The notes under the pieces: generated by a model | Told to the model about the DNA's origin: nothing | Databases searched by the model: none | What the model saw: the letters and a program-made list of their open reading frames with translations, nothing else | Shown: piece by piece, positions 3,866 to 39,188 of the stretch | Numbering within the stretch: position 1 is the stretch's first letter | Layout of the letters: the number at the start of each line of letters is the position of its first letter | Made by a program: the position numbers and the translations under genes | Source: a virus | Direction: 5' to 3' (one strand) | Virus genome (UHGV): UHGV-0176688 | Length of the DNA stretch: 41,778 nt

Positions 3866-3882
3866 TAATTTTCTAATATAAT
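3866..3882. promoter_or_regulatory. Operator-like motif (variant) upstream of lpa-like gene
   Basis: taattttctaatataat; one mismatch from the recurrent TTTCTAACA core. Confidence 0.35.
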
Positions 3883-3956
3883 CATCTTTTTACCAGTCTA
3901 TACAGTTTTAACATTCTCATTATCATCCCCTCGGTCATTTCCTGCCCGGGGGATTA

Positions 3957-4349
3957 ATGGAACAAATCAGCAGCGCAGAAATTGCGGATATCATGATCAG
4001 GGCTGACTGCTATCTGACAGTCACTGAAATTACCACTCTCGCCAAAGAAAAATACCCTCATCTCCATGTTTCACGAGTAAGTGTAACTAACATCATTCGT
4101 CATTTTGTTCGTTCAAGCAGGGCAATCTGTGAGCTGGATGATCGTGTGTATCCACGAAAATACTGGCTACATGGTCTGAACGGATATCAGTTCAAGGTGC
4201 GCGGGCGCACGCCTGAATACGGTAGCTTACTGGTTAAAAACTGTAGCAGAAAATCAGTCGAACAGGCGCGAAAAGAGCAACGAGAGCTGGTGGACATGGC
4301 GAATAAGCTGTGGAATGCCGCCGTTAAAAAGCGTGGTGTTGCTTTATGA
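3957..4349 (+). CDS. Hypothetical protein upstream of pacA; possible Lpa-like late promoter activator by position
   Basis: 130-aa ORF overlapping pacA start (ATGA); in P1 lpa precedes pacA and is C1-controlled; no sequence-level confirmation. Confidence 0.4.
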   Translation: MEQISSAEIADIMIRADCYLTVTEITTLAKEKYPHLHVSRVSVTNIIRHFVRSSRAICELDDRVYPRKYWLHGLNGYQFKVRGRTPEYGSLLVKNCSRKSVEQARKEQRELVDMANKLWNAAVKKRGVAL

Positions 4350-5710
4350 GTCTGGTTAATTGGGAGGAGCACCGCGCCCGCTTTATAGCGTTGCGTGAAG
4401 AAAAAGGGATCACTGTAAAGGAATACTGTGAGGAGCATGGCCTTAGCTTCAATACAGCCAGAAAGCATCTCAATATGAAAAAAAATGAGGTGCGGTCGCA
4501 GGTAAAGACAACAAAAAAAAGCACCAAATCACCTGAAAAAAAACGGGCAGGAAGAGCAACAAAAAAGCTGGAAGAGGGTGCAGAAAAAACAAAATTTACA
4601 GAAATTGACAATTCGCAGGGTGCAGGTTCTTTCCGAAGTATGCCAAGAAAGAAAACTTTGGATCATGAAAATAATACCAATAATAACAATGAGATAAAAG
4701 AATCTGTCAGGAGATCATTGCGCGAAAAAATGGCGAAAATGATCCCCGAAGAAGATAAAAGCGCCCCAAAAATTGAGGGATCTTCAGCAATGATCCCTAG
4801 CGGTGCTGTGCAGCGTGCCACATTGCCCACTACGAATGTGGCTCGCGATATGATGAAGAACGGCGCAGAAGAACACCTGCGGTTAGCAATTCAAATGGCG
4901 CAAGAGCGCGCACTTCAGTATCAAAGCATTGTTGATCAGGAGGCCGAACGTCTACAGGCGGAAATAGACGCCTTGGGCGATAAAGAGCCAGAAGGAATGC
5001 ACCCTGGGCAGCGCCTTCTCGGTCTAATCAGTGACGCGGCCTACTACATGAATGATTTTATCAGTAGGTTGGCAGCTATATATCAGTCCGAACAAAAGCT
5101 GCGACAGGGGGATGAAAAGCTTCGTCAGAGCGCTCGCCAGCAAGCATTCAAAGAGGCTGAGGCCAGAGAAAAACTCGAATTAGCACGCCTACAGGCCGAA
5201 CAGCGTGGCAAAGAGATTGAATATCGCATTGGCGCTGACGCACGCGCTGCCAGAGTTATCGCCGCCGCTATACGTATGCGTGAGCGCGAGGAACTGGATG
5301 ATATCGGTGTTGCTGAATACATCGAGCGCCAGGGGGGCAGCGTCCCGGCTATCCTCGCGGCGCGCGCGGCGAAAGCTATCACTCTTCTCGAACCACCTGT
5401 TTCTGACGTCAATGATGTTGATGATGAACAGCTGGACAAAGAGGCAAGGGAGTTTGCAACGCTTCAGGCTAACCATCCGCAATGGCTGGCAGAGCGCCGG
5501 GCGGATGTGGCAACCATTGTTGAAGAATTGGGGTGCGGAGATTACGACCGCAATGGCGAGCGTAAAGCTGGAGAATTCGAGGCCAACGACGAAGAGCTGG
5601 ATATTGACCCTTCGGCAACGGCTGAAATTTACGGTGATTATGATGCATCTGATGCAGGGTATGACGCCGGAGATGATGATATCGCGATAGAACCGCCGGA
5701 GGATGATTAA
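4346..5710 (+). CDS. pacA: Terminase small subunit PacA-like
   Basis: N-terminus MSLVNWEEHRARFIALREEKGITVKEY...FNTARKHL resembles P1 PacA; acidic C-terminal tail; internal GATC cluster. Confidence 0.8.
   Translation: MSLVNWEEHRARFIALREEKGITVKEYCEEHGLSFNTARKHLNMKKNEVRSQVKTTKKSTKSPEKKRAGRATKKLEEGAEKTKFTEIDNSQGAGSFRSMPRKKTLDHENNTNNNNEIKESVRRSLREKMAKMIPEEDKSAPKIEGSSAMIPSGAVQRATLPTTNVARDMMKNGAEEHLRLAIQMAQERALQYQSIVDQEAERLQAEIDALGDKEPEGMHPGQRLLGLISDAAYYMNDFISRLAAIYQSEQKLRQGDEKLRQSARQQAFKEAEAREKLELARLQAEQRGKEIEYRIGADARAARVIAAAIRMREREELDDIGVAEYIERQGGSVPAILAARAAKAITLLEPPVSDVNDVDDEQLDKEAREFATLQANHPQWLAERRADVATIVEELGCGDYDRNGERKAGEFEANDEELDIDPSATAEIYGDYDASDAGYDAGDDDIAIEPPEDD
4661..4795. other. Candidate pac packaging site (GATC cluster inside pacA)
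   Basis: Five GATC sites at 4661, 4713, 4741, 4779, 4792 within 135 bp, about tenfold over expectation; P1 pac is a Dam-methylated hexamer cluster inside pacA. Confidence 0.5.
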
Positions 5711-37507: not shown

Positions 37508-38488
37508 GTGGCCCAGGAGTTACAACAATATTTTCTACAGTCAGTGCTCATTAACGATAACAAAGTGCCACGAGACTGGATTTTTACCGCAGTATATGTA
37601 GAAAAAACCAGCCTCAAAGCCCCTTTGCTAAAACTGGAAATTCATGACGCTACCGGCACCGTAATTGATGACTGGAAAGCCAAATACGGTGCATCGCTGG
37701 TGGCTGAAATGGGCGATCCAAACGGTAATGCAGGCACTTTTAAAACAGATTTCTTTGTTACGTCTGCAATGCTGGCTGGTGATGTTGTTACCGTTATTGC
37801 TGTCAGTGAAGACGTGCGCAGGTTTAAGATCCCCTCCCCGCGCACAAATTTACATACCAACAAAACACCAGACGCTATATTCAAGGCATATTCCGGCAAG
37901 CTTAAAATTACCAGCAGCGTGCTAAAACGCGCAGTTACATATCATCTGAATGCCGGTGACAAACCGTCAAAAATGCTTTCGGAGATAGCGCGAGACAAAG
38001 GTGCATTGTGTTGGGTATGTCGGGGGGAATTTAACTTTTACACCCTGGCTGATCTGATGAAGCAAACGCCATCATTTACCTACGAGGGGAATAACCCTAA
38101 AGCAGAATACACTTTGTCAAAAATGCGCCTACTCCAACAGGAACATGCGACAACAGCAAAGAATCAATATCGTTTTGTTGGGTATTCCATGACCGATGGC
38201 TACGTCGAATATGGCGATAGCTCACTCCCAGTGCGTTATATATCCGACTCTGATATGGAAACTCTTCGCAATATGCAGCTGTCTCTCGTCCCCAAAATGG
38301 ATATAGAAGTCGCAGGCAATCCGGATATAAAACCGGGGATGGTAATAGAGATTATCGTATACCGCTATGACCAGGAAAACCGCATTGATGAATCAATGCC
38401 CCGCAAGCTGATAGTAAAAAATGTTGCGCACTTTGAAGACCGCGTAGGCTACACAACACGAATGATATTAGGAGTGCCGAACAAATGA
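37508..38488 (+). CDS. Phage tail/baseplate protein (possible hub, by adjacency to spike)
   Basis: GTG start; 326 aa; immediately precedes gpV-like spike. Confidence 0.4.
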   Translation: MAQELQQYFLQSVLINDNKVPRDWIFTAVYVEKTSLKAPLLKLEIHDATGTVIDDWKAKYGASLVAEMGDPNGNAGTFKTDFFVTSAMLAGDVVTVIAVSEDVRRFKIPSPRTNLHTNKTPDAIFKAYSGKLKITSSVLKRAVTYHLNAGDKPSKMLSEIARDKGALCWVCRGEFNFYTLADLMKQTPSFTYEGNNPKAEYTLSKMRLLQQEHATTAKNQYRFVGYSMTDGYVEYGDSSLPVRYISDSDMETLRNMQLSLVPKMDIEVAGNPDIKPGMVIEIIVYRYDQENRIDESMPRKLIVKNVAHFEDRVGYTTRMILGVPNK

Positions 38489-39138
38489 AGCGTAGAGCGC
38501 AAATTGTTGGAACTGTGCACCCGGCAGGGCTTATGCGTGCTCAGGTCCGTGTTTTACCAGACTGGAATGGCGTTCCTGATGACGATCTACCCTGGGCAGA
38601 ATACCTGTTACCCATAGGTAACGCGTTTGTACCTACAGTAAAAGGCGACCTGGTATGGGTAGAGTTTCCTTATCTGGATGTTAATGGTCGAATTGATACC
38701 AGACGCCCAATGATAGTTGGCGCAGCTCAGGATGCGCCTGGCGGAGTACCAAACGTCGCGCCGGAGGCGTCAGGCAATGGTAGCGGCTGGACGCCACCAG
38801 AAGTAGACGGAGCGCCTCCCCGCCCGCAATTTTCGGCGACAAAAGATTTCGTGATTCACCGCAACAATGTGCTCGAAGTGCGAACGGCTGGCGGTGGATA
38901 TGAAATAGCGAATACGGCAGCAGGCTCAAGGATTGGAATGAATGAATCAGGGCAGATATACATCATTGGTCCGGCTGATGTAGTAGTGAATGCGGGAGGG
39001 AGTGTTAACGTCAAATCAGCCGATAACATCAGCGTTAATGGCAAAAACATTATTGTGACAGCCGACGAAAATATTGATTTCAAGGCTGGAGGCACCTTCC
39101 AGGCTATCGCAAGCAACTTTGATTTCAAGAAGGGATAG
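38485..39138 (+). CDS. Baseplate spike/assembly protein V-like
   Basis: N-terminal domain IVGTVHPAGLMRAQVRVLPDWNGVPDDDLPWAEYLLPIGN...KGDLVWVEF resembles gpV/Mu gp45 family. Confidence 0.6.
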   Translation: MKRRAQIVGTVHPAGLMRAQVRVLPDWNGVPDDDLPWAEYLLPIGNAFVPTVKGDLVWVEFPYLDVNGRIDTRRPMIVGAAQDAPGGVPNVAPEASGNGSGWTPPEVDGAPPRPQFSATKDFVIHRNNVLEVRTAGGGYEIANTAAGSRIGMNESGQIYIIGPADVVVNAGGSVNVKSADNISVNGKNIIVTADENIDFKAGGTFQAIASNFDFKKG

Positions 39139-39150
39139 AAAACACATCCA

Positions 39151-39188
39151 TTTATGTTAGATAATTGAATATAATTTTCTAACATAAA
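39151..39188. promoter_or_regulatory. Inverted pair of operator-like motifs upstream of rdgC
   Basis: ttATGTTAGAtaattgaatataatTTTCTAACATaaa; 8-bp inverted arms. Confidence 0.5.

Follow-up and report, generated by a model that had tools for sequence, protein, structure and literature searches.

The closest described system to the one examined here is that of P1, in which the repressor C1 has 22 operators with the asymmetric 17-bp consensus ATTGCTCTAATAAATTT (PMC8546580). In the P1 GenBank record (AF234173) C1 operators are labelled 'monovalent' or 'bivalent'. They are found directly before c1 (Oc1ab, a 28-bp pair, with Oc1c-e further upstream), before lpa (Olpa, touching the -35 of the lpa promoter), in a ref promoter about 100 nucleotides (nt) before the ATG (Oref), over the ref stop codon (Omat), and before accessory and morphogenetic operons (OpmgRa/b, OpmgT, O26, and Oppp ahead of the operon that contains ppp). 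Genes named as C1-controlled in P1 are dmt, ssb, kilA, ban and ref (PMC4713147). D6-like plasmid prophages have been studied as carriers of accessory genes (PMC6799933). We analyzed 41,778 nt of the virus genome UHGV-0176688 (this whole stretch is called the window below), which is, judging from its sequence, a D6-like plasmid prophage of the P1 family, and in which the 9-nt motif TTTCTAACA recurs between genes. Most likely, the sites that contain this motif are operators for the C1 repressor that the element itself encodes, which is distantly homologous to P1 C1.

Exact copies of TTTCTAACA, counted on either strand, are present at 8304 (+), 9714 (+), 21767 (-), 27006 (-), 27664 (+) and 39176 (+). 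Dinucleotide-preserving shuffles of the window hold a mean of 0.41 copies and a maximum of 2, and none of 100 shuffles reaches six. A first-pass annotation of the same DNA had listed these six copies, with a chance expectation of about 0.3, and had placed all of them between genes. The coordinates were confirmed, as was the placement, using a greedy open reading frame (ORF) map of 72 genes (89% coding) that leaves 4,535 nt intergenic. Within those 4,535 nt, where all six copies lie, a per-segment first-order Markov model gives an expectation of 0.05 and a maximum of 2 in 2,000 simulations.

It is extremely unlikely that the copies lack a regulatory role and arose by chance, from the A/T-rich composition of the spacers, or as remnants of recombination junctions. 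In each of three independent lineages there are more exact copies than in any shuffle, the excess also holds under a composition model of the spacers only, and nearly all copies occupy the same gene-relative positions in elements that are about 70% identical (described below). What such an origin would account for is the location of sites at borders where nucleotide homology with P1 stops, and the behavior of the one-mismatch copies as a class, which number 17 against 10.7 expected, with 4 of 100 shuffles reaching 17.

Because this class is only marginally enriched, we accepted a near-variant as credible only with additional support. One-mismatch copies at 5978, 13574, 16234, 22897, 30353, 32259 and 34611 fall below the position-weight threshold and are taken as chance. 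The near-variants previously listed at 3868, 8385, 31088 and 39155 are real and lie within 0-2 nt of those positions, at 3870 (TTTCTAATA), 8386(-) (TTTCTAAAA), 31090(-) (TTTATAACA) and 39155(-) (TATCTAACA), and the one listed at 21785 turned out to be a two-mismatch copy, GTTCTAACG, at 21788-21796. As operators, most of these are credible: the copy at 3870 has a position-weight score of 21.9, those at 39155 and 21788 each partner an exact site in an inverted pair, and the copy at 8386 has an exact copy at the equivalent place in relatives. The site at 31090 is doubtful given its score of 9.3. Its recurrence in D6 is uninformative, because D6 is 99% identical in the spacer between simB and mat and the site is seen again only there.

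To describe the site as a whole we aligned 30 different copies, taken from D6, three relatives and the window itself. TTTCTAACA is an invariant block, with a T directly 5' of it in 25 of the 30 copies; further 5' the sequence is rich in A/T, and several positions there show a base preference, for a whole site of approximately AAATTAGTTTTCTAACA, often followed by Y-A. We read the motif as the conserved end of a longer asymmetric site that would extend over about 17 bp, with a conserved unit of about 10-11 nt and an A/T-rich flank. A position-weight scan finds 7 strong sites in the window and up to 12 candidates, arranged as single sites and three inverted pairs of 30 bp (Table 1). Both members of a pair point their conserved blocks outward, and their A/T-rich ends share 4 bp. 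The first-pass annotation had noted one inverted pair, before rdgC, which is present and is one of the three. It had also described dispersed, asymmetric sites as in P1; dispersal and asymmetry stand, and the description is now refined to a mix of single sites and pairs that resemble the 'bivalent' operators of P1.

The pair before rdgC is itself the core of a near-perfect 44-nt palindrome (39148-39191). If transcribed, the palindrome would form a hairpin of -19 kcal/mol (z -6) that ends beside the rdgC ribosome-binding site. Its symmetry seems to have been maintained in its own right, because both arms carry a mirror-image substitution relative to D6 (ATTTATG/CATAAAT in one element and ATTTGTG/CACAAAT in the other).

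The gene at 7247-8284 had been proposed as a putative c1, and this assignment is well supported: the gene is annotated as c1 in the D6 GenBank records, its 345-amino-acid product matches P1 C1 by BLASTP (20% identity over 240 amino acids, expectation value (E) 3e-7), and all homologues of the product carry the precomputed Pfam assignment PF27008, Phage_P7_repressor_C1. Because it scores 21.9 bits with the NCBIfam phage_rep_C1 equivalog, for which the cut-off is 500, we consider the window C1 to be a distant member of the family and not a C1 of the P1/P7 type. A profile search of 1.8 billion representative proteins returned only 83 clusters matching C1, which are either long (approximately 345-380 amino acids, the D6 type) or short (approximately 250-290 amino acids, the P1 type, matching the first ~245 positions). 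The order lpa-pacA-pacB-c1-rox-dre in the window agrees with that in D6 and P1. A strong terminator-like hairpin (7220-7238, minus strand; 8 pairs, 7 of them G-C, then a T run) lies within the 28 nt that separate the convergent genes pacB and c1.

That the element is a P1 relative, as first annotated, is also upheld, with 95% identity to D6 and 97-98% identity to ~92-kb plasmids of Escherichia coli and Salmonella. The right 17 kb of the window aligns with D6 over 96% of its length at 94.9% identity. The left 25 kb matches D6 in pieces that cover about 40% at 94.6%, is 98.6% identical to the D6 immC record, and has its 97-98% identity to the ~92-kb plasmids over 80-87% of its length; fifteen plasmids in PLSDB span at least 80% of this first 25 kb. 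The D6 annotation includes lpa, pacA, pacB, c1, the rox site, dre, ref, icd, the anti-repressor, mat, simB, hrdC (of the rdgC family) and methyltransferases. All six exact window sites have identical counterparts in D6, and both halves of the rdgC pair are kept there. In the whole D6 genome, which we assembled from fetched loci, there are 12 exact copies of TTTCTAACA and 15 strong position-weight matches; the sites outside the window lie around pmgS, pmgR and pmgM and ahead of repL and of a second icd-ant module (at D6 21268, 5' of the module). No operator or protein-binding features are annotated in the D6 GenBank records examined (AY753669 and MF356679/NC_050154 among them), and literature searches on D6 operators and on the motif sequence returned nothing relevant, with an earlier description in Sauer and McDermott 2004 or Gilcrease and Casjens 2018 being possible.

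We consider the conservation of the sites across diverged relatives to be the strongest evidence that they are operators. The loci compared were picked for, and centred on, a D6-type c1; they came from a protein search and contig look-ups, a scan of genome contigs with C1 having yielded no relative. Their C1 proteins are 89% (L010), 51% (L008) and 43% (L009) identical to that of the window, and all three contigs share the order dre-c1-pacB-pacA-lpa. L008 and L009 are about 70% identical to the window, mostly in coding blocks, and the spacers around the sites no longer align. L008 contains six exact copies of TTTCTAACA against 0.12 expected, and L009 four against 0.10. Nearly all of the exact and near-exact copies in these two contigs are at positions equivalent to those in the window: twice at c1, before lpa, after dre, before pdcB (DUF968), and around pmgS. 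The exception is one exact L009 copy inside pacB, which is probably due to chance.

At individual loci, the c1-proximal copy is exact and beside the c1 ribosome-binding site in all three relatives, despite the diverged spacer. The site before lpa is at the equivalent place in D6, L010, L008 and L009. The site after the dre homologue is kept in D6, L010 and L008 and is represented by a one-mismatch copy in L009, where the pdcB (DUF968) homologue is preceded by an exact copy. The c1-distal inverted site is an exact TTTCTAACA in L008 and L009, at 83 and 95 bp from the proximal site, and is degenerate in the window; because it is exact in those relatives, we treat 8386 as a decayed operator. The comparison suggests a two-site arrangement at c1, which might act through DNA looping.

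Other features of the spacer between c1 and dre can be noted here. The sole ORF between the two c1 sites encodes 33 amino acids (8332-8433, minus strand). The best sigma-70-like promoter of the spacer (8508-8535, plus strand; TTGGCA-16-TATAAT, 11/12) overlaps rox (approximately 8494-8525) and faces dre, and the rox sequence is the only part of the spacer that is kept in all four lineages.

Table 1. Candidate C1 sites and associated genes in the window. Scores are position-weight scores; where two are given, they refer to the two halves of a pair.
Feature	Position	Strand	Score	Context or basis
c1-proximal candidate operator, GATTTAGTTTTCTAACA	8296..8312	+	29.7	11 nt before c1 start codon; presumed autoregulation
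c1-distal degenerate site, TTTCTAAAA	8386..8402	-	8.3	Inverted relative to proximal site, 90 bp away
30-bp inverted pair, cores TATTAGATA and TTTCTAATA	3849..3878	.	8.8, 21.9	79 nt before lpa (3957-4349)
Single site over dre stop codon	9706..9722	+	33.0	58 nt before rightward orf117-dut-isaA operon
30-bp inverted pair between ppp and pdcB	21767..21796	.	32.5, 11.8	42 nt before leftward pdcB operon
Single site in divergent spacer	27006..27022	-	30.9	Between leftward orf88-to-ppp operon and ref (27084-27662); 62-78 nt before ref
Single site over ref stop codon	27656..27672	+	33.6	Ahead of immI-like region
30-bp inverted pair before rdgC/hrdC	39155..39184	.	13.3, 30.9	13 nt before rdgC/hrdC (39198-40103) and DNA methyltransferase genes
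Doubtful weak site, TTTATAACA	31090..31106	-	9.3	Between simB and mat
c1, 345-amino-acid D6-type prophage repressor, presumed motif binder	7247..8284	-		c1 in D6 records; P1 C1 homology; PF27008
immI-like module: isrK-like RNA, C4 antisense RNA, icd (28474-28689), ant (28689-29630)	28209..29630	+		Rfam; D6 annotation of icd and anti-repressor

The places at which the motif is found in the window are analogous to those of P1 operators: at c1, lpa, ref, the ref stop codon, the ppp-containing operon and the pdcB operon. The Ref proteins of the window and P1 are 52% identical. The gene contexts given in the first-pass annotation (c1, lpa, ref, the immI-like region and the accessory operons) are correct and agree with the C1 operators in the P1 GenBank record, and its statement that the sequence differs from the P1 operator is borne out by matrix scans, in which P1-type and D6-type sites are mutually exclusive. 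A P1-type matrix, built from 11 annotated P1 operators, has 10 matches in 20 kb of P1; its other matches are weak, 1 of them close to the right end of the window and 3 in D6. The D6-type matrix has no match in the 20-kb P1 segment, which holds 11 C1 operators, and has 7 matches in the window and 15 in D6; exact TTTCTAACA is likewise absent from the 20-kb P1 segment. Because the operator sequence differs, the element would be expected to be heteroimmune with P1. The single weak match to the P1-type matrix and the low equivalog score do not fit membership in the P1/P7 homoimmune specificity group. A dmt operator was not found in the P1 region from 68.5 to 74.1 kb, the P1 record being that of a dmt deletion mutant.

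Where the window shares blocks of 90-95% nucleotide identity with P1 (ppp, phd/doc, pmgT), the similarity does not extend into the spacers that bear operators; the ppp block, for example, at 90%, ends at 21842, just short of the pair at 21767-21796. The shared genes therefore carry regulatory spacers of the resident immunity type. Across 12613-22449, blocks 85-95% identical to P1 (phd/doc/pdcA, pmgT, ppp) alternate with unrelated DNA and likewise stop before those spacers, a pattern suggesting that genes move between immunity types while every element retains its own set of operators.

A conserved intergenic sequence could instead be part of a promoter, for instance a -35, -10 or UP-like sequence peculiar to early promoters. 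We regard this as very unlikely. All copies are intergenic, 6 of the 7 strong window sites read toward the next gene, and TTGAT-like hexamers are often in or beside the A/T-rich flank, as a promoter element would predict. Looser scans do find -35/-10-like hexamers over or beside most sites, but with no constant spacing to the motif, and under strict sigma-70 criteria promoter-like sites come up at just two places, next to the lpa pair and across the rdgC pair. An orientation rule was rejected, as the 6 of 7 in the window become 8 co-directional and 6 anti-directional sites when orientations are counted against the annotation of the adjacent gene over the whole D6 genome. Moreover, the c1-proximal site reads away from c1 yet holds its distance from the gene, and the three inverted pairs are better suited to protein binding. 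An Lpa-dependent late promoter is not the explanation either: the P1-type late element (AAGTGACTT-N4-TAnnnT, in which TAnnnT is the -10 hexamer and the spacing is about 4 nt) differs from TTTCTAACA and sits away from the motif sites. Its lone match in the window, AAGTGACTT-tcat-TAATCT at 32187-32205 (minus strand), is in the spacer before gene 26, and the P1 equivalent of that spacer has the divergent late promoters LPpmgL and LP26.

Returning to C1 as the binding protein, several observations weigh against it or qualify it. The link between C1 and the motif rests on analogy with P1 and on co-occurrence. The same core is kept by C1 proteins down to 43% identity, which is unusual for immunity repressors. 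The spacers of the window and D6 are 97% identical and too similar for a substitution test (108 core positions with 106 identical, 1458 of 1504 identical in other intergenic sequence, p = 0.36), and the strict promoter scans described above leave promoter occlusion undemonstrated. There is no coi-like ORF in the 394-bp c1-dre spacer (8285-8678), where the longest confined ORFs are 20-33 amino acids, and Lxc has reportedly not been found in pYU39_89, a D6-like plasmid (PMC6799933), the window itself not having been searched for Lxc. The D6-type circuit is therefore not a copy of that of P1, having no Coi counterpart and with Lxc reported absent.

Because the core is unchanged across C1 proteins of such low identity, a different conserved factor could bind it, with C1 acting elsewhere. 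The candidates would be a phage regulator, such as the orf72-like transcriptional regulator (34659-35018), or a conserved enterobacterial host protein, which would easily explain a core shared by elements whose C1 proteins are only 43-51% identical; C1 binding, for its part, is predicted by analogy. We nonetheless judge another binder to be unlikely. In every one of the four lineages the best-conserved site adjoins the c1 ribosome-binding site, and the genes flanked by sites agree, as a set, with the C1 regulon annotated in P1. The loci in which conservation was measured were centred on a D6-type c1, and the 20 kb of P1 that hold 11 C1 operators are free of these sites, although P1 infects the same hosts.

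With C1 as the presumed binder, and its binding presumed to be repressive as in P1, we propose the following scheme. In the lysogen, C1 would bind the asymmetric ~17-bp site AAATTAGTTTTCTAACA, contacting the invariant TTTCTAACA, usually with its 5' T, and the adjoining A/T-rich flank, and would occupy either single sites or 30-bp inverted pairs that share their A/T-rich ends. Bound C1 would silence the lpa promoter, and hence all late genes, together with the promoters of ref, of the C4/icd/antirepressor module, and of rdgC and the methyltransferase genes, as well as the pdcB, orf88-to-ppp and orf117-dut accessory operons. C1 would also regulate its own synthesis through the proximal site at the c1 ribosome-binding site and the distal inverted site some 90 bp away.

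An operator consensus offers a handle on the lysis-lysogeny switch of D6-like plasmid prophages, which are common in E. coli and Salmonella. With it one could predict mutual immunity between elements and the silencing of particular cargo and anti-defence operons in the lysogen, and it could be used in operator-titration or reporter designs. The window would also provide a second, sequence-divergent case of the P1-style design, in which one repressor acts at many scattered asymmetric sites, and comparison of the two cases should help to locate the parts of C1 that read DNA.

A possible structural basis for this design came from an AlphaFold2 model of C1, built with nine homologues, that has a mean predicted local distance difference test score (pLDDT) of 79.5 and a predicted template modelling score (pTM) of 0.46. 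A Foldseek search against the PDB gave four significant matches, all of them E. coli Tus-Ter complexes (1ecr, 4xr0-4xr2), with E from 1e-7 to 7e-6, probability 1.00, approximately 270-310 columns, and template modelling scores (TM-scores) of 0.37-0.48; the next match had E 0.04. Searches at the sequence level did not connect the two proteins: hhalign of C1 against E. coli Tus gave a probability of 0.2%, PDB searches with 9- and 71-sequence C1 profiles gave no match, and a Pfam scan of C1, with a copy of Pfam that has no C1 model, gave no match, the Ter family (presumably PF05472) included. BFVD contained no structural match for the C1 model, and we found no paper linking C1 with Tus. We therefore did not assign C1 to the family of Tus/Ter-binding proteins, since there is no sequence membership and only the predicted fold is similar; the resemblance is a lead from a model of medium confidence.

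Tus is a monomer when it binds its asymmetric Ter sites, and P1 C1 has been described as monomeric. The window C1 may likewise bind as a monomer, and a correct fold prediction would readily account for single asymmetric operators. Tus differs in function, being a replication-fork barrier and not a transcriptional repressor. A broader proposal, to which we give a limited chance and which leans on the same model, is that the whole C1 superfamily (P1, P7, D6 and about 80 other clusters) is Tus-like, with a monomer clamping an asymmetric site, and that D6-like prophages form one broad immunity group with TTTCTAACA. If this were true, a Tus-like monomer would be the first structural reason for asymmetric, dispersed operators in the P1 family, as opposed to the dyad-symmetric sites of the lambda type; D6-like plasmid prophages of different hosts would be a single immunity group across C1 proteins only 43% identical; and oriented C1-operator complexes could act as polar roadblocks. 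A confirmed Tus-like fold would give the design of one repressor with scattered sites a structural basis.

Additional features were observed near the sites and in the window at large. Rfam models identify the C4 antisense RNA at 28332-28419 (76.7 bits), the isrK-like RNA at 28209-28287 (62.5 bits), and four transfer RNAs; the isrK-like RNA, of an Hfq-binding type, stands directly before the C4 RNA, ahead of icd and ant. The operon that follows the 9706 site (9781-12564) encodes a dUTPase, and relatives (loci L008-L011) add proteins with a Tad2-like domain (PF11195); anti-defence cargo may be under the control of the repressor. Finally, Chi (GCTGGTGG) is by far the most over-represented 8-mer in the window, with 30 copies in 41.8 kb (19 on the plus and 11 on the minus strand), and it is also the top 8-mer in L008 and L009.

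Compared with the C1 system of P1 and P7, which is the ImmC branch of their tripartite immunity, the window has a homologous repressor gene that likewise lies between pacB and the lox/rox-recombinase locus. Both systems have numerous scattered, asymmetric sites of about 17 bp in which one half is strongly conserved and the other A/T-rich; these occur singly and as inverted overlapping pairs, and one site has a C4 RNA/icd/ant module downstream. The number of sites is comparable, with 15 strong sites in D6 and 22 in P1. The operators themselves, AAATTAGTTTTCTAACA in the one and ATTGCTCTAATAAATTT in the other, have only TCTAA and A/T richness in common and do not cross-match. The window C1 is 20% identical to its P1 counterpart, is 62 amino acids longer, and has an extra C-terminal helical part. 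The pairs are 30 bp with a 4-bp overlap in the window, whereas Oc1ab is 28 bp with a 6-bp overlap; and where P1 has imcA, imcB and coi before c1, the window is without a coi-like gene. The D6-type system, with its own operator sequence, its 30-bp paired sites and its lack of coi, is most likely of the kind to be expected for a heteroimmune relative of P1.

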